Below are positions 472-63,346 of a DNA stretch of 64,000 nt, piece after piece. The stretch's first letter is position 1; every line of letters starts with the position of its first letter. A program made the translations under genes and the position numbers. The DNA comes from Narcine bancroftii (Eukaryota): contig NC_091469.1 in assembly GCF_036971445.1 (NCBI RefSeq), positions 340,690,001 through 340,754,000 of the forward strand. Direction: 5' to 3'. Under the pieces are notes generated by a model, which did no database searches, was not told where the DNA came from, and was given only the letters and a program-made list of their open reading frames with translations.

Positions 472-660
472 TATAACGTGATCGATAGTACTTGGAGACT
501 TGTGAGGAACACAAAAGTGCTCTTATTAGCTTACAATTAATGGCCGATATCTACAATATTCTTCAGGTAAATCAGAGGTAAGGCAGGAAAACAGGGTTTA
601 TATTGGGACCGACAAGGGCGGAGCCAAGAGGAGGGGTTGGCGGTCTAATCTATACATTCA
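472..660 (-). repeat. 3' LTR of G1
   Basis: Aligns along its length with 4496-4684 (roughly 80-85% by eye). TATA-like aatataaa and AATAAG/AATAAA on the minus strand. Confidence 0.9.
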
Positions 661-728
661 CCCCTTCAGAAAAGAACCTGCGAGTGAAAACAGAGACTAC
701 GTTCAGCAACTCAAATTTTTACAATTAT

Positions 729-3555
729 TTACAAATTGAGGTTGTCTGAGGGCCTGGTTATTCTGGTCGAGTGCCTTAGTACTGGTGGACTTTGCTCTTC
801 CTGTACCTCCTGTGGTTCTTGGATAGTCAGGCTTAAAGGAGGACTCAAGGGATCCAGATTTGATGGTAGCTCCATTGGAACCATGTCGTAAATAACCCTG
901 TGCGGGGTATTTGGAGATTTCTGGCCTATTGAGGGCATTGGGACCTCAGATCCTGAAGGTGCCAGATCTCTAACCGAGACCGTGTCCTTCCTGCCATCCG
1001 GATATGCTACATAGGCATACATAGGGTTTGTGTATAGTAGGTGCACTTTCTCAACCAGATGATCCATTTTGCTCCTCATGGTTTTTCAGCGGGACTGGTC
1101 AAGGTTTTGTTAACCATGCTGGAAGAGTGATCCCTGACGTGGATTTCCTTGGAAAAGCAAGCATTAGTTTGTGAGGAGTCACGTTGGTTGTGGTGCAGAA
1201 GAACGCCCTTATGGAGTGGAGTGCGGTGGGAAGAACCTCTTGTCAGCGTGAGTCTGGAAGGCCTTTACACTGGAGAGCCAATTTTACAGCCTTCCAAACT
1301 GTTGCATTCTCCTTTTCAACTTGGCTGTTCCCCCAGGGCTTGTAACTAGTCATCCTGCTCGAGGTGATGGCTCTTGCGAGCAGGTACTGGTGTAGCTCTT
1401 TGTTCATAAACGATGGGCCCCAGTTGCTATGAATATAACTGGGATACCTGAACATGGTAAAAATAGAGTTCAGAGCTCTGATGACTGTAGCGGTGGAGAT
1501 GTCTGGACAGGGGATAGCGAACGGAAAATGTGAGTACTCATCGATAAAGTTGAGAAAGTACATGTTTCCATTGGTGGAGGGAAAGGGCCCCTTGAAATCG
1601 ATGCTGAGTCGTTCGAAGGGGCTGGAAGCCTTTATCAGGTGCGCTTTGTTATGGCGGTAGAAGTGCAGTTTGTACTCAGCGCAGACCTGGCATGACATGA
1701 CCTGGTCATCTCCCTGATGTCTTCAATAGAGAAGGGGAGGTTGCGTGCCTTGACGAGTGGGCCATGTGGGTGATTCCTGGGTGGTAGAGCTCATTGTGAA
1801 TTGACCGAAACTGGCTGGTGTGTGCAGCAGTACAACTCCCTCAGGATAGGACATCTGGAGGTTCATTGAGAGTACTTGACCTATACACTATCTCATAGAT
1901 ATAGGTGGAGAGTTTGATCCTCCACCTCATGATTTTGTCATTCTTTATTTTACCCCTATTCGTATTATGGAACATGAATGCTACAGATCACTGATCAGTG
2001 AGCAGACTGAATTTCCTGCCTGCCAGGTAGTGCCTCCAGTGCTTGATGGCCTCCACAATGGCTTGAGCCTTCTTCTCCACAGACAGGTTCCGGAACTCAT
2101 GGCGTTGCAGGGTGCGGGAAAAGAAAGCTACCATCCTGCCTGCCTGGTTAAGAGTTGCAGCCAGAGTTATGTCAGAGACATCGCTCTCCACCTGGAATGG
2201 TGCATTTTTGTCCACTGCATGCATGGTGGCTTTTGCGATATAGCTCCTGACGTAGTTAAAATCTGCCTGGGCTTCAGCCGACAATGGGAAGGAGGTGGAT
2301 TTTAAGAAGGGCTGGACCTTGTCAGCGTAATGAGGTACCCACTGGAAATTGTATGAGAAGAAGCCCAGGCACCTCCTTAGTGCTTTTATGGTCCTTGGGA
2401 TAGGGAAGTCAAAGATGGGCCACATTCACTCAGGGTCTAAGCCAATGATGCCATTCTCCACCACATAGGATGGCTAGGTGTTTGGTCCTGAACATGCACT
2501 TACTGACATTGTATGTGAGGTTCAGGGATTTGGCTTCTGGAGATTGGCGTTGCGGTCCTCCAAATTGTGTCCACAAATGGTAACATTGTCGAGATAGGGG
2601 AAGGTATCCCTTAGCCCATACTTATCTACCATTTCGTCCATCTGCCTCTGGAAGACCAAGACCCCATTCGTAATACCAAAAGGGACCCTCAGAAACCGAT
2701 AAAGCCATCCATCTGCCTCAAATGTTGTGTAGGGATGGTCCTCGGAACGGATCGGTAACTGGTGATATGCTGCTTTCAGGTCAATAGTTGAATAGACCCG
2801 GTACTGCGCAATTTCATTCACCATGACCGAGATTTGGGGGAGGGGGTACGCATCCAGGAATATGAAACGATTAATAGTTTGGCTATAGTCAATCACTAGC
2901 CTGGGCTTTTATTCCCCTCTCACGATTACCACCTGGGCTCTCTATGGGCTGTTGGTATGTTCAATTATTTATTTTTTCTTAAGCAGCACTGTATTTCAGC
3001 TCTAATAAATTTTTGTTCCCCTGCACTGTATTGCCTGCTCTTTGTAGCTATCGGCTTACAGTCGAGAATTAGGTTCTGAAATGGGGGGTGGGGGTGGGGG
3101 GGTGGTTTCGATATTCAGTGTGGAGGGATCGCATGAAGTGTCTGGATTTTGGGTCTTTCCGTTCTGCACCATGATTGGGGGAAGTGGGCCTTAGTACTCC
3201 ATGGTCATGCTTTTAAGGTGACACAGAAGCACACAAATCTTTCAACACATACAAATCGGAACTTGTAAAATTCCCCCACTTTTACAGTTAAGTGCACAGT
3301 TAAATACCCCTGAATAGTCACCAAATATGATTACAATGCTAGATAGATATGATATTCCATGGGGTAAATCTTTAAGCTGAACTGCCTAGCAGTCGAAGAG
3401 TTTATAAAGCTCTCTGTCAAGTCAGTATCTATTAAGCAGTCTGTCAGATGTCCATTTACCCTCTCCTCCAGCGTCGAGTTGCTCAGCTGATGAGGTTTTG
3501 CTTGATCGAGGAAGACTGATGCCAGCGCTCTGGAGGCTGCATCTGCCAATGTCAT
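729..3555 (-). pseudogene. G1 pol (PR-RT-RNaseH-IN), frameshifted with stops
   Basis: ORF pieces 3331-3555 (protease), 2522-2896 (RT), 1988-2425 (RNase H), 1243-1698 (integrase core) and 729-1079 (integrase C-terminus). Confidence 0.92.
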
Positions 3556-4495
3556 CTTAATCCAAAGGCCGGAAAGGTGGCGTCAACCACAAGGAGCAGC
3601 AAGATGGCCACCGCTCCCACTATTGCACCTCTTCCAATAGTGGTTTCTGCCACGAGACACAGCAAGATGGCAGCGGCAGGCAGCATGGAGAGGAGAGGGC
3701 CCACAACTTTGGGCTTGGGCATGGGGTGTACGACTGTTTGGGGGCTGTGTACATGGTAGCCTTTCTGGTGTTTCCCTTTGTTCACCAGACTTTCGCCCAG
3801 TGCCCCCCTTACAGCATCCTGAACTCATGGACTCTTCCGTGGGGCATCTGGCGCAATTGTGTTTGGCCTGTCCAGTCACATGTGGCCGTGGTAGTCAGTA
3901 CCTGGGACAGTTGTGCTCTGCAGGCCTGGCTTTCTGAGAAGGTGCTGCTTATATTACCGAGGTTGTCTGCTCCCAGTTGGGCCTATTCGAGGGATTTCAC
4001 CTGATCGAGCATACTGGCAAGGTCCTTCTTCCCCAATTCTAATAGTCACTGCCTCACGTACTTCAAACTCACTCCTGCCAAGAGTGTATTTTGGACTTGC
4101 TCTTCTTCCCTCACCCTGGCTGAGACTGCTTCATAGTGGCACCTTCTCATCATAGTTCCAGGATGTAGTTGTCCAGTGATTCATCAAGTTGTTGCCGACG
4201 TTGTGAGAGTCAGTGTCTCACCTGCATATCGTTCTGGGGTCTCATGTAGTGGGCCTTCAGGCCTTCAATGGCCATCTCACACATTGCATACCCCTTGGGG
4301 CCGACTTGAGAGAGGAGGGTCGATCTCCAGATGCTGTCAGAATGGAAGATTTCTTGGGTGGGCACTTTGTAGGACTGGAAGCACTCCAACTAGTAGACAA
4401 ATTCTTCCGGGGCCTCTGGGGACAGAGGATTGACCTGGAGCATGCCTGGTCTCAATAGGGCATCCTTCCCATCTTCAAAAATAAGCTACTAAAAT

Positions 4496-4684
4496 TGTAA
4501 CATGATCGATAGAATTTGAAGACTTGTGAGGGGCACAAACATGGTTTTATTAGCTTACAACTAATGGCTGGTATCTACAATAGTCCAGGTAAATCGGAGA
4601 TAAGGTAGGAAAACAGGGTGTATATTGGGACTGACAGGGGTGGAACCAAGAGGAGGGGTCGGCCATCTAATCTATATATAGACA
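4496..4684 (-). repeat. 5' LTR of G1
   Basis: Bounded by tgtaacatga...tagaca (TG..CA). Homologous to 472-660. Confidence 0.9.
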
Positions 4685-4689
4685 CTAAA

Positions 4690-5135
4690 TTCCAGTTCAC
4701 TGCACATAGTGCCCTGGCTGGTGAAGGCAAGAGTGCCAAATGCCTTCTTCACCATCCTGTCTACCTGTGTCACCACTTCCAGGGAACTCTTCACCTATTC
4801 CCCAAGGGTTTCTGTTCCACAACATTTTCAAGGATCTTGCCATTTTATTGTAGACATCCTGCCCCAGATTAACTTTCCAAAATGCAACAGTTCACACTTG
4901 TCCACAATAAATTACATCTGCCATTCCTTGATTGACCTCCCCAAGGGATCTAGATTGTGTTGTAACTTTAGACAACCTTCCTCACTATCTACAAGCTTAC
5001 TGACCATGCTAACTATATTCTCATTCAAATCATTAAAATGAAATGACAAACAATAGTGGACCCTGCACTGATCCCTGCGGCACATTACTGGTCACAGGCC
5101 TCCAATCTGAAAAAAATCAGCCCTCCACTGCCAAT
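4690..5135 (-). mobile_element. CR1/HER1-like LINE RT fragment
   Basis: gtggaccctgcactgatccctgcggcacattactggtcac reads as the CR1 VTSNVPQGSVQGPLLF motif on the minus strand. Confidence 0.7.
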
Positions 5136-11266: not shown

Positions 11267-14200
11267 GAATCAGAAACAGAATCAGGATTTATTGTCATGA
11301 ATAAGTCATGAAATTTGATGTTTTGCAGCAGCGACATAGAGGAAACACACAAGTTATGACCATCTTACAACATTACTATATAAACAAAATAGTGCACAGA
11401 AAGAAAGGCAGTCCCTTTGGTTCATTGATCATTCAGGAATGTGATGGCAGCAGGGAAGAAGCTGTCCTTGTACTGTTGAGTGGTTGTCTTTAGGCTCCTG
11501 CACCTTTGTCCCAATGGTAGCAGAGTGAAGAGGGTGTGGCCTGAGTGGTGGGGGTCTTTGAGGATAGAGGCTGCTTTTTTAAGACACCACCTCATATAGA
11601 TGTCCACAATGGAGTGGTCTGGTGCCTGTGATGTCTTGTCCTAAGCATTGGCGCCTCCATACCAGTCAGTGATGCAACCAGCCAGAAAGCTCTCCACAGT
11701 ACACCTGTAGAAGTTTACGAGAGTCTTCGGTGACATTCTGAATTTTCAGACACCTCTCAAAGTATAGCCACTGGTGAGCCTTCTTTGTGATTGCATCAAC
11801 ATGGAGGCTCCATGACAGATCCTCGAAAATGTCAACACTCAGGAATTTGAAGTTCTTGACCCTTTCCATTACTGAGTCCTCAATGAGGTCTGGGTCGTGT
11901 TCCCCTGACTTTCTCCTTGTCCACGATCATCACCTTGGTTTTGCTGATGTTGAGTGCAAGGTGGTTGTCATTACACCATTTAACAGGCTGATCTGTCTCT
12001 CTCCTGTACGCTTCCTCATTGCCATTTGTGATTCTGCAAACAACTGTGGGGTCATCGACTAACTTGTAGATAACATTGGAATTGTGCTTCGCCATACAGT
12101 CATGGGTGTATAAGGAGTAGAGCAGTAGGCTAAGCACGAATCCTTGAGATGCGCCTGTGTTGATAATCAGTGAGGAGGAGATGTTGTTTCCAATTCATAT
12201 GTATGAATATGTATGAATTGCTGTTTTCAAGGTGATCCAGAGCTGAGTGGAAGCCAGTGATATTGCATCTGCTATAGAGCAATTGTGACAATAGGCGAAT
12301 TGCAGTGGGTCCAGATCTTTGCTTAGTAGGTGTTAATTCTAGCCATGACCAGCCTCTCAAAGCATTTCATTACAGTAGAAGTTAGTGCTACTGGGTGGTA
12401 GTCGTCGACACAACTCATGCTACTCTTCTTGGGTACTAGGATGATTGATGCCCTTTTGAAGCAGGTGGGAACCTCTGACTGCTGCAGTGAGAGGTTGAAA
12501 ATGTCCATGAACACTCCGGCTAGTTGGTTGGTGTAGATTTTCATTACTCTGCCAGGCACACCACCAGGGTGTGATGCCTTGCGAAGGTTCACCCTCTTGA
12601 ATGACATTCTAATGTCGCCCTCAGAGACAGATATCACAGGGTCGTCAGCTTTTTTTAGGGATTCTAGTCTTTCTTCTCAAAGTGGGCATAGAAGGTGTTC
12701 AGCTCATTGGGTAGTGAAGCATCACAGCCATCTATTGTGTTTGTTATATAGTCAGGAGAATGTGAGCTATTTGTAACCGCGTATGAATACATGCTTCTCA
12801 CTGTAGTAACTGAAGTGTACCACTGTGGGGAGTTTGTATATGTATATGTGAACGTGAAAATGGTGGAAGGCATCAATAAGTCTCTTTTGTTATCTGAATC
12901 TTGCATCTCTAAGTTATTTAAGAAGCCTCCCAAGTAACACAGAGACATAACATGGTGGCAGCGGTATAAGAGAACAGGAATAAAGCCATACAATTGATTG
13001 TAAGTCACTGAAATATGAAGGGGAAGAAGAGGAAAAACATTATTGGAAAAAATGGCTGGAGCATCAGCAGTTCACCCAGTGATGGACTGGGAGGCTGAAG
13101 ACATTGTGGAATCGTTTAAAAGGTTTCAGCAGAAGTACAGTTTAGCATTCAAAAGCTATTTTAAAAAATGCAACAGCAGAGAGAAGATCAGTTATAGACT
13201 TCTCTGGACAGGGGAGTGAGGCCTTGACTTATTTAATAGCTGGGGGCTTACAGAGGTGGAGAAAAATGATTCAGAGCAGATATTTGCAAAGTTTGCTTCT
13301 CACCTTGAACCCAGGTCTAATCATAGAATTAAACACTATGAATTTCAAGGCTTAATGCAAGAGACTGATAAAACTAGACTAAAAATTGTTGCTGCAAAAT
13401 GCAGATTTAAGGATATAGAGGAAAGATTAGTTTATCAACTAATATTGGGGGAGTGCCCATCCTGAAGTGCAAAAGTCTCTTATAGGGAAGGATAGCCTGA
13501 AGCTGGCTAAAGATATAGACACACCCAGAGCCTTCGGAGCCATGAGGACGCAAATGAAATCCCTATGTATGCAGACCCACCCACAGCAAAGAGAAGGAAG
13601 GGTTGATGCTATAAAGAACACAATCAGAGAAATGCAAGCTCCCCAAGACCTGCAGGAAGTGCGGCAGACAACACTCCTTTGATGACCGAAACTGTATGCC
13701 CCATTTACAGTTCTGAATGGAGAGCCTGTGGTAAAGCAAACCATTGGCCAAAGATATGCAAGATTGGTATGAAGAAAACAGTAATACCAGTGAAGAAAAA
13801 AGACAAGGAGAAGGAAACAGAAAAGGAAACAACAATGAGAACTCTGACACCCAGATACTGGACGTAAAATCCATACACCTTCACGAGATATTGGGTGAGA
13901 TGAAAGAAGGAAGTGAGTTGCACACAAGGATCCAAATACAGAGGACAACCCGCAACAAGCCAATGATATTTAGCCTAAAGGTGAAGCTGGAGACTGGATC
14001 ACAAAGTAACGTCCTTCCACTCAGACTCTACCGTCAGATGTTCCCAGAGAACATAATAAAAGGATATCCAAAAGACGGTGCATTGGAAACAGCAAATGTC
14101 ATATTAACAGCCTATGGTGGACCCATGATCAAGCAACATGTACCCAGAATGTTTTGATGATTCAGTTGGATGTTTTGGAGACTTTGAATATTACATCTCC

Positions 14201-15390
14201 ATAGATCCAAATGGCAAACCCGTCATCCCTGCTCCAAGGGAAGGTCCACTAGAGCTTAAGAAGAAGCTGGAGCAAGAACTAAAGGACATGGAAAGGATTC
14301 AAGTCAAAGCCAAAGTGACTGAGTGACTGACGGGGTAAATTCCATAGTGGTCAAAGACAAACCAAATGGCCACTTGAGAATATGTCTGGACCATAAAGAC
14401 TTAAATCAAGCAATAAAATGGAGTCACTACCAAATACCAACACTAGAAGACATCTCAGCAGAACTAAGGTCATCAGAGAAATTGAGACAGCAAGATCATA
14501 CATAGCCGAGACAGACTCTGGCAATCAGCTGAGGAGGAACAGAATTCACATCCGGCCGACACAAGATGTGATGAAGCGGAAAGCTTTAATACCAGCAAAG
14601 CCTGCAACACCAATAGAAAATGAGGTATAAAGTGAAGAGACCACAACCACTCATACCGAAACATCAACACAGCAGTTGTCAGGTGGAGCACAACAAGCTA
14701 CATCACCTGCATGTGCACCAGCAACACAGAGCCTAATAGTCACAGCCAAATCCACAAGATGGTGAAGCAATCTACTGCCCCCAGTGCAATAAAAACTATT
14801 TAAAAATAGTTGTGTAAATAAACTAGTGTACCAAGTTCAGTTACTTAAGTTGCATTGGAAACAAAGTGATAAAGAACACTAAATTTTTCTTTATCTTGAG
14901 AAGAAGGGATGTTATATAGTTTAGATAATGTGAACTATTTGTAACTGTGTAAGAATACACCCTTCTCACTGTAGTAACTGTAGTGCACCATCGTAGGACG
15001 TATGAATATGTATATGTGAGTGTGTGAACAGTTTCCTGACATGGTGGAAGGCATCAGCAAGTAAAATCTGTTTTGTTATCTGAATCTTATATCTCTAAGT
15101 TATTTTTAAGAACCCTCCCAAGTAACACAGAGACATAACAGTGTATCTAACTCTGTCTCTAGCCTCCTCCGGAATTGTCACTTTGCTTCAGTGATAGCCT
15201 TTTGCAGGTTGCACCTTGACTTCTTGTAAAGATCCCAATCTCTGGCCTTAAACGCCCTTGCTCTCACCCTCAGCAGGTTGCAAATTCTCTGATTCGTCCA
15301 GGGCTTCTGGTTGGGAAACACCTGGTATTTGCATGTGGGCACACATTCATCCACGCAGGTCTTGATGAAGTCTGTGACCCCTATTTGCAT
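11267..15390 (-). mobile_element. Rex1/Babar-like LINE, interrupted by Mag-type LTR element
   Basis: Minus-strand RT pieces (VNLRKASHPGGVPGRV..IFNLSLQQSEVPTCFK; KAHQWLYF; VFPNQKPW) at 11422-12740 and 15141-15390. (gaatca)n tail near 11270. Confidence 0.85.
12742..15140 (+). mobile_element. Internally deleted Gypsy LTR element, Mag-like (element G-Mag)
   Basis: LTRs 12742-12952 and 14910-15140 (tgttatat..ataaca). tRNA-Leu-type PBS tggtggcagcggt at 12953 and PPT gagaagaaggga. TSD gtgtt/gtgta. Gag, protease (LETGSQSN) and RT start (KPNGHLRICLD..IPTLEDI) are joined directly to the integrase C-terminus (RSYI..LRRNRIHIR). Confidence 0.9.
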
Positions 15391-16160: not shown

Positions 16161-17100
16161 GGAGCACCTGTCTGACCCACACCGGAACCTGCAGTACTTG
16201 CATCAGCGGCTGCAATTCTCTCCTCCATGGGGGGCTCCTCAGCAACTGCTGTTGTTGGCATTGGCCAGGCCAGCAGTTGGGGAAGGTGAACATCAAAGGG
16301 CTCTACATGGTGAGCTATAGCTTCTAGGGAGCGAACCACCTCCATGATCCTTGTACGAGATGAATTGTTCTCCTCCAACAGTCTTTGTCAGGTCACCCTC
16401 AACTGCAACCCTCGCACGCAGGCATTTCGAACAAGTCGTTCCACCTCCCAGCAGTCACCCCAGCTTCGATCATGCATGGGTGTACTAGTTCTTACAGTAT
16501 CTCCAGGTAAGCGTCTGCCATCTCTCCTGGATGGTGCTCCCTAATGCTGAGCAGGTACCGGGTGTAGAGTATGTTCATCGGAGGCCGGTACATGGCTTCC
16601 AGGACAACCATAGCTAGTTCGATATCTGTGCAGTCTCACATAGCCTGGAAAGTGCGCGGGCCCAGCTTGAAGTGTAGTACCATGAGTTTTTTCTCGTTTG
16701 TATTGACGACCTCAGCCTGTGTGTGGATGATCACCTCAGTCACATGCTTCCAGATCTCGAAGTATGCTGGAGCACTTGGGTGTTGAGGGTGAATATCCAG
16801 CCCCTTGATGGTGAGGAACTTTTCCGTGATCTTTTTAATTTTGAGCTAATTAAATTGTGAGCGCTACTGCGCGAATAATTCTGACGCAAAATCCACAGAC
16901 TGTACAACAGGCTTTAATTAGCTTAAACTTGTACAGAATCTTGCTAGCTCCATGTGTCAGACTGACCCTGAAGGGGCCAGCTTGAGTCTTTATACAGGCC
17001 GGTGAATGACAGCTGGTAGGTGAGGCCAACCTCCCAGGTTTCCTACCTGCAGGTACAGTGGTTGTCCCCTGTACTGCTCTATGTTTCCCTGGTGCTGGCA
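16160..17100 (-). mobile_element. Truncated Gypsy element (5' LTR plus gag), related to G1/G2 (element G3)
   Basis: LTR begins at tgtgag (16856) with TATA and ATTAAA on minus. Minus-strand gag-like reading FLTIKGLDIHPQHPSAPAYFEIWK..QRLLEENNSSRTRIMEVVRSLE parallels the G1 gag. Confidence 0.75.
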
Positions 17101-36609: not shown

Positions 36610-37165
36610 CTTAAAAATGTTTTGTCCCTGATTTTCCTCCAATTTACAGGTGGTCTCGGTCTGGCAGTACATGAGACCATGGACAGGCATGTCGGCAAGG
36701 GAATGGGATGGAGAATGGAAATGGGCGGCCACTTCAATTCTCCATCCCATTCCCTTGCCGACATGTCTGTCCGTGGTCTCATGTACTGCCAGACTGAGAC
36801 CATGCATAAACTGGCGAAAAACACCTCGTCTTCTGTCTGGGCACCCTCTAAATGGATGGCATCAATATTGATTTCTCAGGCTTTAAAAAAAATCCATCCC
36901 CTTCTTCCCCGTCGTCTCTCCATTACCTGTCTCCTTTTGCACAGGCATGATAAATTCTATCTAGTCCCTTATCATATCCAATTAACACCTTTTGCTGGTC
37001 TGGATTCCTCTCCATTATCTGAATTCTGAGTCTGATATATCCTGCTTCTACATTTTCAGATTTTTCCTTGAAGAAGGTGTCAGGCCTGAAATGTCAGCAA
37101 TATATCTTTGTCTCCTATAGATACTGAAAAGATCAGCTGAGTTCCTCCAGAATTTCGGTATGTTA
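36610..37165 (+). mobile_element. Short Penelope-like insertion with inverted 5' duplication
   Basis: Palindrome 36651-36802 followed by the PLE tail (ccttgaagaaggtgtcaggcctgaaatgtc..gctgagttcctccag). Confidence 0.8.
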
Positions 37166-38210: not shown

Positions 38211-40329
38211 TAATATAATCAGAAGTAAACTGTCGGGTTTTGATGAACAATAAGCCATTTTCATGTCTAAATTGACTCGACAATATTGATATATTGTTTG
38301 ATATTGAGTCAGGCCATTTTAGCAAGTTAAGCCAGATACAGTAACACAAAACACTGTCAATCTGGAAATCCGTTCTGGTGAGGAGGCTGTGGGAAATGAT
38401 GAAGGTTTCCTTAACCCAAGACCGGGTTCGGCAGATGTCATGTACAAGTCATTGGCATCTTTATGCAGACACATCATCATTTTCTTCTTGTCCAACCCTG
38501 GGAGATGTAACCCAAATTACTTTCCGAGTAATCTGTCAGGATCATGTTGCCAAAAATGTCAATTTATGCTGGCAATGGAACAAACGTGCACCATGTGACC
38601 TGTGATGTTTTTGGTGTACATATTATGCTGGAAAATCTCAGTCACAATAAGGTGAATAGTTCATGGCAGTGTCCAGGACAATTCTCTGTTGGACACATGA
38701 TTTCACCTGGAAATGATGGCAAGCATGATCTATCCTGATTTAAGTAATTAAAGTTGCATCAAGTTACAGGTTAAAAATGAGCTAATTGTAGCACTTTCAC
38801 CTGTACTGGCCATAGTGTGGTTATTTTGCAGAAAAACAGAAGTATTCTTTTAGTGAGACTTTAAAAAGATGTCTGTTCTCTTCATATCCTTTCTTGGCAC
38901 GATCCCGCAATCTCTCGCCTCCCTGCCTTCCTCTGGTTCAGCTCTTCCAAATGGTTACTTTTACATTATTTAAAATGGATAAGCCTGAACCTTAAAATAA
39001 TTTCTTAATTGAGGGCACCTCAGGTAAACCAATGGAAAGTAAATCATGAAAATCTGTAAACACCATAGTTGAAGTAAAAAAAACACATAATGCAGGAGAA
39101 GCTCAGCAGATCAAACAGTGTCCTTTATGTAGCAAATGTAAAGATACATAAATGTTTCAGGCTTGAGCCCTTCAGCAAGGTATGAGAAAATGCCGTCAGG
39201 TATCTGAACAAAAGAGTATGGGGGTGGCTGTGGAGAATGTCTGCAAAGCTGCCTGTCTCCCCTCTGGCGAGCTTTGCTGTTCGAACATTGGCTGTGCATT
39301 ATCTCTTCTGTTAAGGACACTCCCCTTGGATATAACTGTATATGCATCTATTATCTTTAATTATTGTACCATGAGTTTCCGCTAATAAAAGCCATGATTA
39401 TTGTTTGACCACATCGTCTTTGTCTACTTCATCAACTGGCACTTCAATTTTATTAGCAGAAGTGGATGCAGCACCAGAGCAGCTGATAATCGACCAGTCT
39501 GCCCTAAGAGCCAGAGAAATTCTCAACCACTGGATTGCTTGTTTCGATTACTACATGGCTTGAAACAACGTGGTCAATGAGGCGATAGAGTGGGGTCACC
39601 TGAACTCTCTGCTGGGTGAGGTTCCTTTCGTCGTAACGCAAGGAGCTACCACTCTGGCTATAGCCCGGGAACGTCTGACTGCTTACTGTGCAGTGCCACA
39701 GAAAGTGGTACTTGCTTGACACCAGTTGCTGATTAGACGCCAGAAACCCGGGGAAACTGACACTGCCTATGCACTGGCTCTCGACTCACTGACAAATGAA
39801 TGTGATGTCAGGGCATCTGGATGCTTTAGTCAACGGGATTGACTCCAGTTACATCTGACAGAGGCTGCTGGAGATGGAGCCCTTAACCTACGACCGGGCA
39901 GTCACTCTAGCCAAAACACTGAGAAGTGCCATACGGTCCAGTGAAATGCTAGAAACCGAAAAGGAAACATCCAGGAGTGCTGGATTCCTGAAGGAAAGAA
40001 AAAGGTGAACTCCTGAAAAATGCTACTTCTGTGATAAGAGCTGGCACCCCAGACAGAAATTCCTGGCTCGATTTGCTACCTGCAGCTATTGTGGGAAACT
40101 CAACCACTTTGCTAAAGCGTGTAAGGTGAAAAGTATTCCCAGTGAGAAGGAGAAGAAGAAAACCACCAAGAAAATGCATCCTGGAGCTACAGGAATGGAA
40201 GACAACTGTGAAAAGGGGGAATCTTCAGACGAGCAGGCTGAATTGACTTCAAGTGACGATGAGGTGAGATCCCCTGTGATAGCTCAATTGACTCCAAAGC
40301 TTGGGGGATGTTATGGACTGGAATGGTCG

Positions 40330-43300
40330 ACTATGAAGGGGGAGACTCTTGATTGTCTAATAGACTCAGGAAGTGCTGACAGCAACATCCACGAGAGAGT
40401 TGCCAGAGCCTTAAATTTGCGGAGATATCCAACGAACCGAAAGATATCGATGGCTTGTAGTGAACTTACAAAAACTATACGGGACGAGTGTAAAGTTACT
40501 TTAAATTTGCAGGGACATTACCTGGCTGATGTGTGGCTCTTTATTATGCCAGAGCTCTGCGCCCCTGTGGTACTGGGGTTAGATATTCAATCTCAGATGA
40601 ACGGTGTAGTGTTAAATTTCGGTGGGTGTCGGACTCTGGCTTTACCTTACTCTTAATTTAGTCTATGTGTAATCTGAGTCCAGCGTGTTCTTTGAATGAA
40701 GTGATAGGAGAAGGTATTCGGTTCAACAGTCAATTTATTACACAGCACAAGAATAAAACTTAACAGAGCTCTGGGTCACTCATTAGTTCATAGGTCACCT
40801 GCACAGTGAGCTACTCCCCAAGACTGACCCCTATTGTCCAGTTGGTTCAGTTTATATAGGTCAACCTTATCATACAGAACAAAAGTTGGCTTCCTTTGCT
40901 AGATTTCATTATCATACAGAACAAAAGTTGTCTTCCTTTGCTAGATCTTTTTGCATAAGGGTTATCACAAGTCATCTCCTGTTTTGCAGATACCTGGGGT
41001 GTAGCACTCCCATCTTAATCCTCCAGGCCAGACTATCCTGTTGTGTTGATCAGAAATTAATTCATCCCCAGATATTTCTAATCACCATTCTGTTCTTGTC
41101 TGGCCAATTTCTGCTGTTCTCTTTAACACCTCCTCATGCCTTAATCTTCCTCCTAGACTGGTTTTCCATTCCCTTTGTTTCTTGCAGGCCATTCTTTGTT
41201 CTGGTCTGGCCTGTGTCTCCTGTGCTACTCACCACCTCCTTCAGTTTGAGCATTCCTCCTAAATCGTTTTATGCATTTCCTCTCCCTGTATTTTGGAGCA
41301 GACAATTTTGCTCAGCCAACTTTGCTCCATACTGTGATTGCCACTTAATCACATTCCTTTTTCCCTGAACCATGCAGTAAATATACACTTATTAATTAAT
41401 CATTTATTTCATACTGTTTTAACCCCTAGATTCCAACATGGGCCAATACACATGCTTACCATCCCCCGCGCTAGTTACTGTGGTCTGTCAACATTAAAGA
41501 TCAAAGCTCCCTCCCTTTTCAGTAATTTATCCCCCGAATGTCGGCCGATTGCCACTAAGAGCCGTTCTTACAGCAAAGAGGATTAAACCCAATAAGAGTC
41601 CATGGCGAGCCCAGGTGGTAATTGTGAAAAATTACACTAAGAAAAGACTGGCTATTGACTACAGCCAGACAATCAACCGTTACACTGGATGCCTACCCCC
41701 TGCCATGCATCAATGAAATGATTAATCAGATAGCACAATACAAAGTGTACTCCACTATCTACCTCAAGGCAGCTTACCACCATATCCCCATTAAAAAAAA
41801 GGAATGAGCCTATACAGCCTTTGAGGCTGATGGGGGTTATACCAGTTTAAAAGGGTACCTTTTGGAGTCACTAATGGTCTGTCGGTGTTTCAGAGGGAAA
41901 TGGATAAGATTGTTAGGACGTATGAGTTACAGGATACGTTTCCCTATCTGGATAATGTCACTATCTGTGGGAAAACACAGGCTAAGCACGACAACAACTT
42001 AGAAATTTTTTGCAACAGCTAAAGAACTCAACCTTATATTTAACAAGGGCAAAGGTGTGTTCAATGCGACAGAGCTACCCATTCTGGGCTACATTGTCCG
42101 CAAGGGCGAAATCCACCCCGACCCGGAAAGAATGGTCCCCCTTAAGAAGTTACTACCCCCAAATTCAGTAAAAGCCCTTAAAAGGAGTATGGGATTTTTT
42201 TCCTACTACTGCAAATGGGTTCGGGACTACGCCATGAAGGCACGCCCTCTGTTTGACACTAAATCTTTTCCTCTCTCTCCAATGGCCTTGATGCCTTTCA
42301 AGAGAATTAAAGCTGATATTGCCAAAGATGCACTCTCATCCATTGACAAGGATGTCCCATTCCAAGTGGAAACTGATGCCTCAGATTGTGCCTTGGCAGG
42401 AACCCTTAATCAAAAGGGCAGACCTGAGGCATTCTTCGCCCGCCCATTACGCAGTCCTGAACTTAAACATCTTGCCATTGAAAAAGAAGCCCAGGCTATT
42501 ATTGAAGCTGTTCGCTACTGGAGACACTTTCTAGCCAGCAGAAAATTTACTCTTGTCACTGATAAGAAATCTGTAGACTACATGTTCAGTACTAAACAGA
42601 AAAGTAAAATCAAGAATGATAAGATGGCACACTAGTGAATAGAACTCTCAACTTATAATTATGAGATCCAGTACTGACCAGGCAGGTTAAATGATCCCTC
42701 TGACGCATTGTCACGATCCGCTGCTGGTGCTCAGCTGGAGGGGCTAAAAGAGATCCATAGCAGACTGTACCACCCAGGAGTCATGAGATTCTTCCACTAC
42801 ATAAGGGCTAACGACCTGCCTTACTCTCTGGAAGAAGTCAGGAAACTAACTAAAAGCTGTCCTGTTTGCGCAGAATGCAAACCTCAATGGTTTAAAGCTC
42901 CAGAGGCCACTTTCATCAAGGCAACCCAACCTTTTGAGAGGATTAGCTTAGATTTTAAAGGGCCGTTACCTTCCAACAACAAAAATGTATATTTCCTTAC
43001 CGTAATTGACAAATATTTCAGGTTTCCCTTTGCGATACCCTGCCCTGATGTCTCGTCAGTGTCTGTCATTAAGTCACTTGACAGAATTTTCAGTATTTTT
43101 GGTTTTCCCAATTACATTCTTACCGATAGAGGCTCAGCATTCATGAGCGTTGAACTGTGGCGAGCTCTGCTTCGAAAGGGGATTGCCACCAGCTGTACCA
43201 CGAGCTACAACCCGCAGGGCAATGGGCAGGTTGAAAGGGCTAATGCTACATTCTGGAAGACTGTTAATCTTGCTTTAAAAACACATGGTTACCCTGTTAC

Positions 43301-43812
43301 CCAGTGGCAGGAGGTGCTGCCTGAGGCACTACATTCTATTCAGTCTTTATTGTGTACTGCAACAAATCAAATGTATGTTTGCCCTTCCTAGGAAATCAGG
43401 AACTGTGATGGACTGGCCAGCCTGTTTATCTGACCCTGGAACCATGCTGCTGAAGAGCCACGCTCGGGCATGTAAAACAGATTCCCTAGTCCAACCAGTT
43501 CAGCTACTGCATACTAACCCCAAATACGCTCATGTTAACTTCCCAGATGAGAGTACTGACACTGTACCCCTAAAAGATCTGGCCTCGCCTGGTTCACTCC
43601 TTCCTTGCACCCCTACTCAGAGTGAGCCTAAGAGGTTGGATTCACCCCCCCAGCCTGTGACCCCTAGTAAGGTTTCAGATGGCCAGGCTGAGGCTCCACT
43701 GCCTCACGCTAGCGATTGTGGAGTGGGTCCAGAAGCCAGTCCTTCCCACACTACAGACTCAGGACCTGTACCAATTCCCAAGGTTGCAAAGGAGCCACCT
43801 GTTTTGAGATGA
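40330..43812 (+). pseudogene. G2 pol (PR-RT-RNaseH-IN), disrupted
   Basis: ORFs 40126-40656, 41338-41586, 42057-42635, 42708-43391 and 43285-43812. Confidence 0.92.
40627..41438 (-). mobile_element. Solo LTR (812 bp) inserted antisense in G2 pol
   Basis: Termini tgtcggactct / agattccaaca (inverted, TG..CA) and 4-bp TSD TGGG. Removing it restores the frame LNFGG-PIHMLT. TATA (ctatataaa, ~40851-40859) and AATAAA (~40734) on the minus strand. Confidence 0.88.
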
Positions 43813-44899
43813 AGCACCAGAATTTGTAAACAACCTGATAGACTGACATATTTATAAAACATCTCATTATATTTCAATTGCTTACTAGATACTGCCATAT
43901 TTTGGCTGTTAGAGTAGCTCAAGGCCAAACATGGTATCCATGTATCGCTTGCTTCAGTCTTTCCTAGCAGCTGTCCTTTTGATTTTAACCCTTCTTCTGC
44001 CGGGGGAGACTGTGGTGAATGTCTGCCAAGCTGCCTGTCTCCCCTCTGGCGAGCCTTGCTGTACTAACATTGGCTGTGCATTATCTCTACTGTTAAGGAC
44101 ATTCTCCTTGGATATAACTGTATATGCATCCATTGTCTTTCATTATTGTATCATCTGCTAATAAAAGCCATTATTATGGTTTGACCACATCGTCTTTGTC
44201 TACTTCATCAACTAGCACTTCAGTGGCAAAAGCAGGAGATGATAGATGGAGAAAGGGGGGAGGGGACAGCAGCTTTGAGTGGGAGGAGGGAGGGGAAAAT
44301 TGGAAAGACTGGAAAGGGTGAGGGGATCGTAAAGGTGAGTAGGTTTAGTAGAAAGCAGTAAAGTCAATGTTAATACCATCTGGCTGGAGAGCGCAAAGAC
44401 AGAAAATAAGATGTCTTTCCTCCAATCTGCAGATGGTCTGGGTGGGACAGAACATAAGGCCATGGACAGACATGTGAGTGTAGGAGTGTGACCCAGAATT
44501 AAAATGATTGGCCACTAGCAGGTCCGTTCTGTGACCGGACTCTCCGATGCCTCAAAGGGAATGGTAAATAAGTCGTCTGAATGTACAAGAGAAGTGTTGC
44601 TTCATGCGAAGTGGATGTACAAGAGAAGTGTTACTTCATGTGAAAAGCCTGTTTGGGGTTGAGGACCATGGTGAGGGAGGAGGTGTGCATGCAAGTGTTG
44701 CATCTCCTGCAAGCTTAGGAGAAGTTGCCAGGTGGGGGGAATGGGTAGAGAGGGATGAGTATACGAGGGAATTGTGGAGGAAGCGGTTCCTGTGGAAGGC
44801 TGAGAAGGGAGGAGAAGGAAAAATGTTTATCCCCCACACAAAGTCCAAAAGCACTTTGCTTCTTTCTGAACCAAAGACCCAACTAGTCACCCTCTTCCA

Positions 44900-46625: not shown

Positions 46626-47016
46626 ATACATGACAATAAAGGAATCTTGACAGCCTTTACCACATTTATGGCAAGTTATCGATGAGAGGTCTAATCAAGG
46701 TTCAAGGAGATTTTGTAGGTGGACTAAGTAAACAGCTCTGAAGAAGCTCCAGTAAATGTAGAATCAATAATGGCACTTCTCATAGTCAAATTATTTTGTC
46801 CTCATCCACAATCTATAAATGCCAATTTCTTAACAGAAGGATATAATATGAGGTAGAGATGTGCTGCAACCACACAACATGTAAGATACACCAACTACAA
46901 CAGCAGAAATTAAATTACTGTAGTGCACCATAAGGCAGCAAAAGAGATAATAAATATAGAAAACTGATAAATAAATATTCATAGTTCCAAAGTTTAGAGT
47001 AGATTGTGGTGTTCAT
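46626..47016 (-). repeat. Inverted local copy of 52533-52917 flanked by a 13-bp direct repeat
   Basis: About 96% reverse-complement match by eye. ctatgaacagaca at 46613-46625 and 47017-47029. Confidence 0.92.
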
Positions 47017-52222: not shown

Positions 52223-54224
52223 ATACGATACCAATGACTATCCAGAATCACCCACGGTTCAAAACCTAGAGTGGAGCTAGGGTTCATCCCAGAAGAGAAG
52301 AGGCAGATAGTGCACATGTGGTGGGCTTTAAGGTGCCATCAGCTGGAGAGTCCAGTCCAGGTATCAATGAGGCAATTGAAGGAGCCAATGACAAGGTGTG
52401 CAGTAAACTGTGGGCAGGGCTTGACCTTAATTGGCAGGTGAGATGTCTTCCAACTAGGTTCCAGATGGAGAGGCCACATGATTCTCCGCAATCCACATTC
52501 CCATCAGGTTCCAGACAGAGAGATCACATAACCACCACAATCTACTCTAAACTTTGGAACTATGAATATTTATTTATCAGTTTTCTATATTTATTATCTC
52601 TTTTGCTTTCTTATGGTGCACTACAGTAATTTAATTTCTGCTGTTGTAGTTGGTGTATCTTACATGTTGTGTGGCTGCAGCACATCTCATACCTCATATT
52701 ATATCCTACTGTTAAGAAATTGGCATTTATAGATTGTGGATGAGGACAAAATAATTTGACTGTGAGAAGTGCCATTATTGATTCTACATTTATTGGAGCT
52801 TCCACAGAGCTGTTTACTTAGTCCACCTACAAAATCTCCTTGAACCTTGATTAGACCTCTCATCGATAACTTGCCATAAATGTGGTAAGGCTGTCAAGAT
52901 TCCTTTATTGACATGTAATAAAGACCGTATATTACACAGGATTTGCTTTAATCTGCCGTAAGGCAGACAGATTCGTCATCAGCAGAAATTGCCTCTTAAA
53001 GTCAGAAAAAGAGAAGCAAATGAGAGTCCTCGAGTGTCTGTGGCGGCCCCTGCAGTCACGCAAAGTCCTGTCCGCTGTGAATCCCTCAACTTCAGTTGCC
53101 TGCAGTCTGTGCAAATTCCTCACCTCAAGTCTCCAACAGCCTCAACTGTTGGAGACAGGCCCACCTGTTGAGGAGAGCCTGTGTGTTCCGCGGCCACAGA
53201 ACCCCTCACTGGTCCGTCGCTGTGGTCACTGTCACATGGTCATCTCCTCTGCTTCTCTTTCTCAAGTGGGGGGAGGGTGTTTTCCCCCATTTTCTGGTGT
53301 CCTATGCCAGTCCTCTGTTTACCCAGAGTTCGCAACCCCTCGTGGCTGCTTCGATCACAGGCACCGCCATCTTGGGTGCAGAGCCCGCGGTCTTTTTAAA
53401 GTGAAACCATCATTGGCTCCATTAACAAGGTGTTTAAAGCCTGTGCAGAACTGACAGCAGTTGGACCCCATGGGAACACTGTGTCTCCACTTCCTGCTCT
53501 AGACAGGTCTGCACCAGCATTTTTTCATTGCACACCTACACAAGTCTATTGATAACTGATTGAAACAGACTGTCAAGCATCAAGTGGCTTCAAAAACTAT
53601 AAAAAATAATGCATACTGTTAAAACTTCTTAAAATTATTGAAACATTAAAAATAAAGGAAAACCACAGTGCTTAGAAACAATAACAAATATTCAAAAATA
53701 GTCAAATATATTTAAAATAGTTCCAATTCAATAAAGAAAGCAGCTACCACCGACTTTTACTATTGAATAAAGTGATGGAACAAGTGCCAGTTTGGAGCTT
53801 TTGCTTTTGCACATGCATGCATTGGAACTGCAAGCTTCCTCACAATTAGAGGATAAAATCAATGTTTCTGCTTTTTTTCAGCTCCAGTTTCTTTCTTAAT
53901 AATTGGTAGACAGCTTCAAACAATCCTCAAATGTAAGGGAGCTCTGTCCCTTACACCAAAAAATTGTTATTGGACATCCCACCAGTAGAGAGATTCACAT
54001 TTGGGCAGTCTTTGTATCGAATATGACTTGAGGTGGTCTTAAAATTACATGAACATGGGAGCATAAGTGTACAATTAAGTCTAACTTCTCAAGTCTTCTC
54101 CAGTGTTCAGTAGAATCAGAGTTGATTCATAACTGAACTCTACATAAACATTTTATCAAGGGTTTGTTCACAAAAAACTGAACAGAAGTTTTGCATTTGC
54201 ACCTGGCATCTAATAAACACCATA

Positions 54225-59652: not shown

Positions 59653-62600
59653 TATGGGGGGGTGGGGGTGGGGCTTCATGTTCAAATCATCCCTGTAATG
59701 CTGGCTGACTACGAGATCCGGGGGGCCACGCTGGGATGGCACTGGACCCCCTCCACATCTGGTATGAAGCCCACGGGCTGAGAAATGCTTCGGGAGTGTT
59801 ATGACGTCATGTCTGGTTTCAGAATGGCCGAACAGCAAGTGACTTAAAAAGTGGTCTAAAGAGAGATTAAAACAGTTCTTTTTTGGTTACAATGGGAGTC
59901 AATGTTTTCCTTTGTAGCTTTGTCTTAAAAGGCACCATATTGGTGACCCCAACAGTTCAGTTGTCTCTGAACCCAGGACAATGGCCGATGAACTAGTGCT
60001 AAGCGCAGTGGTCAGTAAGCTCCCAGTGGTCTGGCCACACAGACCATGTGCATTGTTCATTCAGGTGGAGGTACAATTCAACCTCTGCAATATCACCAGC
60101 GAGGCTACAAAATTTTGGCACGTCGTTACATCGCTAGACAAGGAGTTGGTCACTAAAGTTGAACTTTTCCTAAGCAATCCTCTGCAGAAGGTCAGTACAA
60201 GGCCCACATCCTACAAACTTTCACTGTGACCAAGCTGGAGAGAGGCACTTGTCTCCTATAATCTGGACAAACTTGGGGACAGGTCCTCCTCCGAGCTAAT
60301 GACTGAAATCCTCGCACTAAATGACAGATACTCCAAGTGCCTAATGTTCAAGGCCGCATTCTTAGAATGCCTCCCCCACGATATCGCCATGTTCCTGTTC
60401 AACACAGACTTTTTTGACCCTCAGGCTGTGGCAAATGAAGCAGACAGACTATACAGAGTTCCCAAAAATTCTGTCGCAACAGTTCATTTCGACAACTGTC
60501 ACAACCCTGAGACAGGCAGGAGGGTCCAAAGGCAAATAGCAGGACGGGTAGTGTTTCTATCATAGGAGGTGGGGCCGGAATGCCCGCTGATGCATCCCAC
60601 CATGCACTTACTCAGCCGACACCCAGGGAAACGGCACTGCCAGCCACCAGTAATGGCCATGGCACTTGGTGAACACACAGGCCTCTTCTGCACTGTCAAC
60701 CAAATCTCCAGACAAAGGTATTTAGTCAACAAGGGAGTCAAACGCAGCATCCTGCCACCAAACACTTTTGAACGAGAAGCCCAGTCTAAGCAGTCCAATC
60801 TATTCATGACAAATGGGACGCCTATACATCAAGTCAGTCCGTTTGCTACTAGGAGACTTGGCTTACAGGTGAGATTTCACTATCACAGCCGTACACCAAC
60901 TGATCCTGGGAGCGGATTTCCTGAGGGTCAATAACCTACTGGTCGATGTGAGGGGGTGACGGTTAGTCCATACCTCCACTTTCCAGACATGCCCACTCTT
61001 GCCTAGTACGTGCCAGCCCTGCACGTACAGACCCTGACTACGAACAAGTTCGCAAAGGCCCTAACTGAGTTCCCTGAGATCCTTGCTCTGGATTTTCATA
61101 TGAACACCCCACTGTACTAAGTCCAACATTATGTGATAACCAAAGGACCACCCATTCATGCCAAGGTGAAGAGACTTCCCCCTGAACGTTTACAACAAGC
61201 CAAAGAGGAATTTAAAATGATGGAAGAGCTGAGCATCGTCAGGCGTTCTGACAGCCCTTGGTTGTCTCCCCTAAAGCAAGCGGGGGCTGATGACTATGTG
61301 GAGACTACTGAAGAATGAACAGTGCAATGGTACCAGATCACTACCCAATATTGCACAGTCAGGATTTTGCTGCAAACCTGCATGGGAAACAGTTCTTTTC
61401 CAAAGTGGTCCCTGTGAAAGGTTACCACCAAATCCCTGTACACCCAGATTTTGTGCCTAAGATGGCCATTAAAACCCTGTTCGGGCAGTTTTAATTTCTG
61501 AGAATGCCATTGGGGTTGAAAAACGCGGCGCAAACATTTCAACGTCTAATGGATGCAGTTTCCAGAGACCTTCCCTTCATTTTCATCTACCTGGATGATA
61601 TCCTGAAAATAGTTGCTCCAAAGAGAACTTGCAGGTTTTGTCACCTGAGCTGGTTTATGGCATTTCCCTGTTGGTGCCAGCTGTCATTCCACCCCTGCCC
61701 AATGGTGATGATTACATGGCACTGGAAGTACTCTGATGCTTGCACCAACATCTGGGGGCATTGGCCCCAACCCAGTTCAAAGTCATAGCTCACCATCCAT
61801 GCATGTCCCGGCAGATCTCAACAGTACCTTTCGTGTTTGTCCATCGCTCGACACGGGACACAGCTACAGCATCCCTACATTGGACCATATCTTTGGCTTG
61901 GCTTCGCGGACGAAGATTTATGGAGGGGGTAAAAAGTCCACGTCAGCTGCAGGCTCGTTTGTGGCTGACAAGTCCGATGCGGGACAGGCAGACACGGTTG
62001 CAGCGGTTGCAGGGGAAAATTGGTTGGTTGGGGTTGGGTGTTGGGTTTTTCCTCCTTTGCCTTTTGTCAGTGAGGTGGGCTCTGCGGTCTTCTTCAAAGG
62101 AGGTTGCTGCCCGCCAAACTGTGAGGCGCCAAGATGCACGTTTTGAGCCGATATCAGCCCACTGGCGGTGGTCAATGTGGCAGACACCAAGAGATTTCTT
62201 TAGGCAGTCCTTGTACCTTTTCTTTGGTGCACCTCTGTCACGGTGGCCAGTGGAGAGCTCGCCATATAACACGATCTTGGGAAGGCGATGGTCCTCCATT
62301 CTGGAGACGTGACCCATTCAGCGCAGCTGGATCTTCAGCAGCGTGGACTCGATGCTGTCGACCTCTGCCATCTCGAGTACTTCGACGTTAGGGATGAAAG
62401 CGCTCCAATGGATGTTGAGGATGGAGCGGAGACAACGCTGGTGGAAGCGTTCTAGGAGCCGTAGGTGGTGCCGGTAGAGGGCCATGAAACTGCCAAAATG
62501 TTTGGCCTGGAAGTCAGCCTGAAGAAAACTGAGGTCCTCCATCAGCCAGCTCCCCACCATGACTACCAGCCCCCCCCACATCTCCATCGGGCACACAAAA

Positions 62601-63346
62601 CTCAAAACGGTCAACCAGTTTACCTATCTCGGCTGCACCATTTCATCAGATGCAAGGATCGACAATGAGATAGACAACAGACTCGCCAAGGCAAATAGCG
62701 CCTTTGGAAGACTACACAAAAGAGTCTGGAAAAACAACCAACTGAAAAACCTCACAAAGATAAGCGTATACAGAGCCGTTGTCATACCTACACTCCTGTT
62801 CGGCTCCGAATCATTGGACCATATAAAGTGCTAAAAAACAACAGGTCCAGCCCGCTGTTGGACATTGGGAAGAAACACGAGCTGTGTACATGGACTGGCT
62901 CAAACCTGCCCACATGGACACTGCCGAGACAGTGTCATTTCCACTGCTGCATCACCATGGTCACCCCTCCCCAAAAAAAAGCCTAGTACTCAGACTATTG
63001 TACCGGGGGATGATTTGGGGGGGGGGGGGGCGGGTACAGTAACGGCAGCCAGGGTCGGGGCTTCACATTCAAATTGTCCCTGTAATGTCGGCCAACCACT
63101 AGTCCCGGGGGCCCACGCTGAGATGGCGCTGGGCCCACGCTGAAATGGCGCTGGACTCCCTCCACCTCTGGGACGAAACTCACAGGCTGAGAAGCGCATC
63201 AGGAGTCTTATGATGTCACGTCTGGTTTCAGAGTGGCTGAACCACGTGACTTAAAAAGTAGTCTAACGAGAGATTAAAACAGTTCTTTGCTGGTTACAAT
63301 GCGAGTCGGTGTTTTCCTTTGCAGCTCTGCTTTAAAAGGTACCACA
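59653..63346 (+). mobile_element. Internally deleted Gypsy element, CsRN1-like
   Basis: LTRs ~59653-59939 and ~63038-63346, TSD GGATG. tRNA-Trp-type PBS tggtgacccc at 59941 and G-rich PPT. Gag KLPVVWP..FIQVEVQF..TKFWHVV and RT GPPIHAK..SPW, MPLGLKNAAQTFQR, YLDD. RNase H and integrase core are missing. Confidence 0.9.
61891..62811. mobile_element. RTE LINE with 5' inversion, inserted in the CsRN1-like element
   Basis: 3' part on minus (61891-~62484) and inverted 5' part on plus (~62485-62811). 13-bp TSD cattggaccatat at 61878-61890 and 62812-62824. Confidence 0.93.

Follow-up and report, generated by a model that had tools for sequence, protein, structure and literature searches.

Three related LTR elements in the window

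We analysed a 64,000-nt stretch of the Narcine bancroftii genome, referred to below as the window. Three related LTR retrotransposon copies, G1, G2 and G3, lie within it, and the coordinates of their features are collected in Table 1. G2 is full-length but decayed (39229-44222), with a 5-bp target site duplication (TSD) and 5' and 3' LTRs that are 89% alike. Its gag-pol region is interrupted by stops and frameshifts and retains the DYSQTIN and YLDN motifs of reverse transcriptase (RT). G2 measures 4994 nt, compared with approximately 4250-4300 nt in most copies of its family, and some 700 nt without a polyprotein-like frame lie between its protease and RT (around 40700-41450). G3 retains only a 5' LTR and the start of gag, with no RT motif at the locus; its family elsewhere in the genome carries the RT of the lineage described below (62% to a young family).

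Table 1. Features of the G2, G1 and G3 elements, in window coordinates.
Feature	Positions	Strand	Remarks
G2 left TSD, GTGGC	39224..39228	+	matches the right TSD
G2 5' LTR, TG...CA, 218 nt	39229..39446	+	
G2 TATA-like box	39329..39338	+	promoter prediction
G2 LTR arm, likely self-primer	39377..39390	+	AATAAA at 39384-39389; predicted primer 3' end at 39390
G2 predicted second stem, directly 3' of the arm	39391..39440	+	39391-39394 with 39437-39440; suggestive only
G2 unpaired spacer A (39447) and PBS (39448-39461)	39447..39461	+	arm-complementary, no TGG
G2 gag-pol remains	39462..43840	+	zinc knuckle, protease, RT, RNase H, integrase
G2 polypurine tract, 5' of the 3' LTR	44000..44010	+	
G2 3' LTR	44011..44222	+	arm copy at 44154-44166, 13/13 with the PBS
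G2 right TSD, GTGGC	44223..44227	+	
G1, decayed, same clade as G2	472..4704	-	5' LTR ~4496-4704; 3' LTR ~472-657
G3, truncated	16549..17071	-	5' LTR ~16856-17071; gag start ~16549-16824
G3 5' LTR parts		-	TATA 16988-16995; arm with ATTAAA 16913-16927; PBS 16840-16854

At the site normally occupied by a tRNA primer-binding site (PBS), one spacer base after the CA that ends the LTR, each copy has a TGG-less segment complementary to a stretch of its own 5' LTR, which we call the arm. The G2 PBS pairs with the arm at 13 of 14 positions and closes a 57-nt loop. The corresponding pairings are 12 of 13 with a loop of 50 nt in G1 (PBS 4482-4494, arm 4545-4557; minus strand) and 14 of 15 with a loop of 58 nt in G3. 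A preliminary description of the window had reported this geometry, and its pairings hold in all three copies. It had also called the three arms different: they differ mainly in the outer three to six pairs and have a core in common, and the strong covariation signal presented below comes from a wider sample rather than from the window. Both remaining LTR pairs of the window (12742-15140 and 59666-63344) have TGG among the six bases that follow the LTR.

A scan of both strands of the window identified 18 CA sites followed by at least 12 of 14 pairs, and three of these are the LTR ends of G1, G2 and G3. Sites with at least 13 pairs comprise G2, G3 and one long inverted repeat near 36700. This repeat (36690-36763) is near-perfect, with its arms about 50 nt apart. 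An inverted repeat pair of 386 nt with 97% identity is also present (46627-47011 and 52533-52917), its copies separated by approximately 5.5 kb.

A Ty3/Gypsy lineage that includes a young family

Two protein searches of the 3.3-Gb host genome returned 57,744 and 49,320 first-look candidates, 150 of which were scored in each case. The G2 and G1 lists each supplied 40 batoid loci, and 20 of those taken from the G1 list belong to a young family. DNA from outside the host genome contributed 62 metagenome loci and six genome-contig loci, whose hosts are presumed to be animals; the viral contigs searched yielded no relative. Six contigs binned in bacterial MAGs (L219-L224) encode a lineage element and are probably animal DNA in those bins.

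The lineage has the TG...CA LTRs, TSD, polypurine tract and PR-RT-RH-IN order of Ty3/Gypsy elements. LTRs are mostly 150-250 nt long, TSDs are mostly 5 bp, and gag starts approximately 18-38 nt after the LTR end. Protease, RT, RNase H and integrase are present in five of five lineage proteins, none of which contains a Chromo or SH3_Tf2-1 domain, and the GPF/GPY motif is absent from the ORF of the young-family copy L157. RT-RH identity is 55-71% inside the lineage and 22-30% to outgroups. A quick tree, which returned long-branch warnings, groups 34 lineage rows (SH-aLRT 99) apart from three other lineages of the same genome. From their motifs, we label these as Mag-like (a family whose PBS has TGG), Gmr1-like (also a family) and sushi-like (one copy). 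The sushi-like row (L283) falls outside the lineage; it is a single decayed long-branch copy, named by eye from its integrase tail. One family (L259, also L260-L266) has an integrase SH3-like domain 5' of RT, an order that appears Gmr1-like, and LTRs of about 700 nt; the single junction examined in this family is without TGG directly after the LTR end.

The lineage matches the Cigr-1 clade of Ty3/Gypsy in a by-eye protein comparison made without a joint tree. We file it there because Cigr1 rows in the available part of the PMC8220671 supplementary alignments share its SPWRAQV, DYSQT-N and LDAYPLP signatures (RT, RNase H and integrase), and because a manual count across roughly 110 residues of RNase H puts the identity to Cigr1 near 60%.

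The young family has LTRs that are 99-100% alike, and L157 encodes one unbroken ORF of 1461 aa with the RNase H acidic motifs. The same junction is found in 19 of its 20 loci. These recently moving elements therefore have no tRNA PBS. The best named match of the L157 protein is 99% identical and comes from Narcine bancroftii, and other matches are from sharks, rays, cnidarians and Trichuris. Many ORFs of this family (L153-L172) exceed 1400 aa, and an Ala/Thr/Asp-rich tandem repeat of variable length lies between zinc knuckle and protease.

The arm-complementary PBS is found throughout the clade

We scored pairing as at least 12 of 14 pairs from PBS position +2. Among LTR-pair loci with exact TSDs, pairing was found in 11 of 12 loci of the G2 family (from 41 loci), 3 of 4 from the G1 query (from 21), 11 of 12 of the young family (from 20) and 8 of 11 outside the host genome (from 68; one of the eight is a false call in a TA repeat). 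Control LTR pairs gave 0 of 8 (from 18 loci), and seven of these eight have TGG. The misses are wrong boundary calls or an outer host element. Automatic LTR ends were wrong in L044, L146, L162, L072, L094 and L224, and the automatic call for L078 was the outer, TGG-primed host element; all were kept in the counts. L078 itself is a lineage element nested in that other LTR element.

A looser junction scan of the batoid loci found pairing in 26 of 40 G2-family, 12 of 20 G1-query and 19 of 20 young-family loci. The G2-family and G1-query loci with no pairing junction (14/40 and 8/20) are assumed to be decayed or truncated. Outside the host genome, anchoring on the gag start gave pairing in 30 of 35 testable loci, compared with 11 of 600 random positions; five of the 35 scored below 12, and the other 33 of the 68 loci are without the region. 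TGG, whose absence had been noted for G2, is missing from the first six bases in all 19 of the family representatives described below. The arm-complementary PBS is real and clade-wide. One copy of the G1 family, L139, has lost the arm and approximately ten following bases from both LTRs, between short direct repeats, and the deletion sits at the predicted strand-transfer point.

PBS and arm covary without G-U pairs

One natural copy per family was chosen for a 19-row set, and five rows were added to make a 24-row set. Near-duplicates (L078-80, L094, L095, L124, L127; L086, L097, L098; L093, L101, L103, L113) and copies with decayed or deleted junctions (L082, L115, L126) were omitted from the 24 rows. 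In the 19-row set, the PBS scores 13.5 of 14 against its own LTR and 9.5 against the LTRs of other rows, a preference reached in 0 of 100,000 permutations. The own LTR is strictly best in 14 of 19 rows and tied in five, and in each row 0 of 300 shuffles of the LTR segment match the observed score.

The 24-row set gives the same picture at the level of single positions. Of the 312 cells that cover PBS positions +2 to +14, 305 are Watson-Crick pairs with the cognate arm and none is a G-U pair, with the reservation that the rows are related (for example L072/L075, L104/L112 and L107/L117), that the cells are not independent events, and that the register was set by best pairing. Position +1 is never Watson-Crick paired. 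Positions +2 and +3 are A:T in 24 of 24 rows, and +4 in 23 of 24. From +5 to +14 there are two to four pair types per position, save that +11 is G:C in 21 of 24 rows though its neighbours vary. Pairing with the own arm is complete (13/13 Watson-Crick) in 20 of 24 rows, the duplex extends over 13-19 pairs, and G-U pairs occur only outside it. The covariation across families and the retained complementarity agree with what had been proposed from the window.

Structural RNA stems usually allow G-U pairs. We read the arm as a primer rather than a mere fold mainly because a PBS that is re-copied from its primer in plus-strand synthesis should exclude G-U.

Promoter, RNA folding and the poly(A) signal

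Six batoid rows have a predicted TATA-like box 60-93 nt 5' of the arm 3' end and a predicted Inr-like motif 33-60 nt 5' of it. These motifs place the predicted transcription start 18-45 nt 5' of the arm, in line with the suggestion that the arm is not at the beginning of the transcript; the primer would consequently be internal. The family copy L036 has an Inr-like motif approximately 27 nt 3' of the TATA-like box. Contigs from four runs presumed to be RNA, compared with the young-family LTR, show neither a clear poly(A) junction nor a clear start and are given no weight here.

The PBS-arm duplex is part of the minimum-energy structure in folds of all 19 rows (z -1.2 to -7.5). The decayed G2 copy alone beats its shuffles only modestly (z -1.6, 13/200). 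Most folds also contain a second stem that begins at the base after the arm. Its summed length is 58, compared with 42.6 in shuffles (0/3000), although shifting the start 1 or 6 nt along gives stems of similar mean length. The second stem of G2 and G1 pairs with bases 4-6 nt from the LTR end, probably within U5.

The preliminary description had tied the arm to the LTR poly(A) signal. This is correct for 16 of the 24 rows, in which the arm ends in AATAAA or ATTAAA, and does not extend to the remaining eight, which have no canonical hexamer in the arm. A hexamer is present in the loop in 3 of the 8 rows without an arm hexamer and 0 of the 16 with one (Fisher p 0.02, 19-row set). Because loop hexamers occur only where the arm has none, the arm hexamer, where present, is probably a working poly(A) signal. 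Among G1-like copies, arm and PBS switch together between AATAAA (8 of the 12 shown) and ATTAAA (4 of 12), which may represent one event. The coupling is labile: the quick tree places L117, whose arm has a hexamer, within a group of rows that lack it.

A probable self-priming mechanism and the source of the primer

The preliminary description had proposed that these elements prime minus-strand synthesis from their own RNA. Cognate pairing free of G-U, the lack of a fitting host tRNA (see below) and the clade-wide junction all make this likely. We put at roughly 0.72 the probability that a widespread single-ORF Ty3/Gypsy lineage, which matches the Cigr-1 clade and has G2, G1 and G3 among its copies, uses a 13-19 nt arm of its own LTR as minus-strand primer instead of a tRNA. 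Self-priming in the broader sense, with other copies of the arm also admitted as its source, is highly probable. The process is probably Tf1-like, with an internal primer, in a clade that is not chromoviral.

On the model of Tf1, the arm copy in the 5' R would fold back onto the PBS, and the RT-RNase H of the element would cut just 3' of the terminal A run of the arm, at the foot of the second stem. RT would then make a strong-stop DNA of no more than 24-68 nt, and this product would move to the 3' end by means of the stretch that separates the arm from the poly(A) site. When the plus strand is made, the primer still attached would in turn be copied into the PBS, and re-copying in each cycle would explain why the covariation is confined to Watson-Crick pairs. 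The primer itself would be an internal capped fragment of roughly 30-60 nt, in contrast to Tf1, which uses its first 11 nt.

The poly(A) site generally follows the hexamer by some 10-30 nt. So short a strong-stop DNA requires homology in the interval from the cut to the poly(A) site, and the hexamer would then have to sit in or just after the arm. This is the likely reason why the arm contains it in most families: a poly(A) site is needed a short way 3' of the cut, and the geometry of strand transfer could by itself account for the overlap. In HIV-1, the poly(A) hairpin holds AAUAAA in a stem near the 5' end, and the hairpin lies within R, at both ends. The stem is of a similar AAUAAA type here, but its partner strand is the PBS and it is predicted at the 5' end only. 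As the partner strand exists only at that end, putative masking of the 5' LTR poly(A) signal is a plausible extra role, to which we give somewhat less than even odds.

The primer might be self-derived but come from another copy of the arm, which we consider unlikely. That copy could be the 3' R of genomic RNA, which would circularise, or short RNAs supplied in trans by solo LTRs or by 5' LTR polyadenylation after tail removal. The arm lies in predicted R and so would be found at both RNA ends, with the 3' copy of G2 pairing perfectly, but no more than 24-68 nt separate the 5' arm from the PBS, and in the family representatives the minimum-energy fold is predicted to be the local hairpin. The second stem of G2 and G1 uses probable U5 and hence forms at the 5' end only. 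L139, without an arm in either LTR, fits a primer from elsewhere, but is explicable as a one-round strand-transfer slip between its short direct repeats. Templated Watson-Crick covariation fits such a source too.

tRNA comparisons and other candidate primers

We compared the PBSs with 15 isoacceptors of the host's own genome; neither the 3' end nor the anticodon half of any of these tRNAs fits in family after family. Half-tRNA matches of the Osser/Bianca type reach at most 8-9 nt, in 4 of 19 rows (tRNA-Ile, tRNA-Asn). When G-U pairs are allowed, the best tRNA fits in most rows end at tRNA position 23-25, in the D-arm. In a post hoc test, the arms with their three following bases were scored against the D-loop of tRNA-Thr(AGT) (nt 12-27) and gave a mean of 10.9 of 16 (10.4 without the closest subclade). 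This score was reached by 0 of 300 shuffled tRNA sets and by 0 of 2000 column permutations (6 of 2000 without the closest subclade). Among 762,314 windows of host DNA, an equal score was found only in tRNA-Thr(AGT) and in three windows resembling lineage LTR arms, and the chance expectation from host DNA is approximately 0.005-0.01 for the tRNA set used.

A 5' fragment of host tRNA-Thr(AGT) ending in the D-arm (about nt 12-24) could accordingly be imagined as the primer, with the LTR arm acting as its mimic to shield either the PBS or the poly(A) signal. Beyond the D-loop likeness, which exceeds that of shuffles, this is suggested by L085, the sole row whose PBS is a perfect 13-nt Watson-Crick complement of the tRNA-Thr(AGT) D-loop; the PBSs of L072, L075 and L076 pair completely if G-U is counted. 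A PBS normally mirrors its primer, but here 20 of 24 rows have one to four true mismatches to tRNA-Thr(AGT) and 22 of 24 need G-U, against complete pairing with the own arm in 20 of 24. Present-day priming by this tRNA is therefore improbable. Sequences with longer complementarity of the PBS to tRNA-Thr were sought as well: the genome gave two matches, neither of them LTR junctions nor tRNAs, and the genome contigs gave none.

The D-loop of tRNA-Thr(AGT) is instead a possible origin of the arms, judging from this sequence likeness. Cigr-1 self-priming might have arisen independently of Tf1/sushi when the LTR captured a copy of the primer used before, a 5' piece of tRNA-Thr that ends in the D-arm; the captured copy would then have become the poly(A) signal, and families of the L085 type would still accept either primer. 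We hold this full scenario to be doubtful. If true, it would record a route from tRNA priming to self-priming, and one short element would act as primer, 3'-end signal and 5' poly(A) switch.

It is likewise improbable that the duplex is only regulatory or structural, serving 5' poly(A) masking or the control of translation or packaging near the gag start, with some other molecule as primer. The hexamers in 16 of 24 arms, the distribution of loop hexamers, the closeness of gag to the LTR end and the precedent of the HIV-1 hairpin would all suit such a role, but the duplex is kept in the eight rows without a canonical arm hexamer, its fixed start at +2 and its lack of G-U pairs would go unexplained, and a lineage with recently moving members would be left without a primer.

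Priming by a tRNA-Ile half has been predicted for the Copia element Bianca (in the available part of PMC6317226). The anticodon arm of host tRNA-Ile(AAT) complements 8-9 nt of the G2, young-family and G1 PBSs, but priming by this anticodon half (AAU), or chance A/T-rich complementarity, is largely refuted by the cross-family test and very improbable, as the match falls to 6 nt or nothing in other batoid rows and does not track arm changes, and as the self-pairing spans 13-19 nt at scores that no LTR-segment shuffle reached.

Relationship to known self-priming elements

In Tf1, RNase H cuts between bases 11 and 12 and frees a primer consisting of the first 11 nt (PMC7175516, PMC4600332, bioRxiv 10.1101/2022.12.06.519325, in their available parts). 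According to the same partial sources, Tf1/Tf2 of S. pombe, Tj1 and the Tf1/sushi group resemble the present lineage in having no tRNA PBS and a PBS complementary to a segment of 5' LTR RNA. Tf1 also forms flanking duplexes in a three-duplex 'pretzel', one of them adjoining the primer end, to which the second stem predicted here may correspond. The lineage would work like Tf1 but is not a Tf1/sushi member: it lacks the chromodomain, SH3_Tf2-1 and GPF/Y, and its RT-RH is 22-24% identical to the sushi-like copy. Its duplex is also 13-19 bp long, with the arm predicted 18-45 nt inside the transcript and usually overlapping the poly(A) hexamer, unlike in Tf1.

The available part of PMC6317226 gives self-priming as predicted from LTR/PBS complementarity in the plant Copia TAR lineage (Houba, Osr-1) and in Tcn1, and these predictions imply that self-priming arose more than once. 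Both differ from the present lineage in belonging to another superfamily or to the chromoviruses, in plants or fungi, and that part of the source describes no overlap with a poly(A) signal. The Saci2/lennie clade, in the accessible portion of PMC12471100, is similar in its single gag-pol ORF, length of about 5 kb and metazoan hosts, but has a 4-bp TSD, LTRs of 250-520 nt and tRNA PBSs assigned by its author. We dropped an identity with Saci2 as TSD and LTR length disagree with the lineage.

The literature covered further included parts of PMC3601003, PMC5341516, PMC5006619, PMC2678813 and PMC13524379, and PMC2774666, in which a term search gave no useful matches. Within these partial sources, animal self-priming is confined to sushi-type chromoviruses. 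Our literature search found no description of self-priming in Cigr-1 or in any other animal Gypsy clade that is not chromoviral; its reach did not extend to the Levin papers, Butler 2001, Simmen and Bird 2000, GyDB, Repbase and Dfam, which may already remark on the junction.

A second, non-chromoviral origin in a clade as abundant as this one (approximately 50,000 first-look candidates here) would make independence from tRNA common among animal retrotransposons. Self-primed elements would be expected to evade silencing by 3'-tRNA fragments and would slip past tRNA-based PBS filters. With an internal primer that overlaps the poly(A) signal, both the choice of the self-primer cut and 5' poly(A) suppression could be tested on a 120-nt RNA. 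The G-U-free duplex offers a simple computational signature of templated primers in other clades.

Cigr-1 is represented by the Ciona element and by molluscan relatives in PMC6238403, the main text of which has no occurrence of 'PBS', 'primer' or 'self'. The RT, RNase H and integrase signatures are common to Cigr-1, as far as its sources were available, and the present lineage, but Cigr1 itself has YLDD whereas the RT motif here is mostly YxDN. Of 141 homologous proteins, 103 have YxDN, those of the unbroken young family among them, 31 have YxDD, and seven are unmatched. The RT motifs lie at 41808-42022 in G2 and 2525-2908 in G1.
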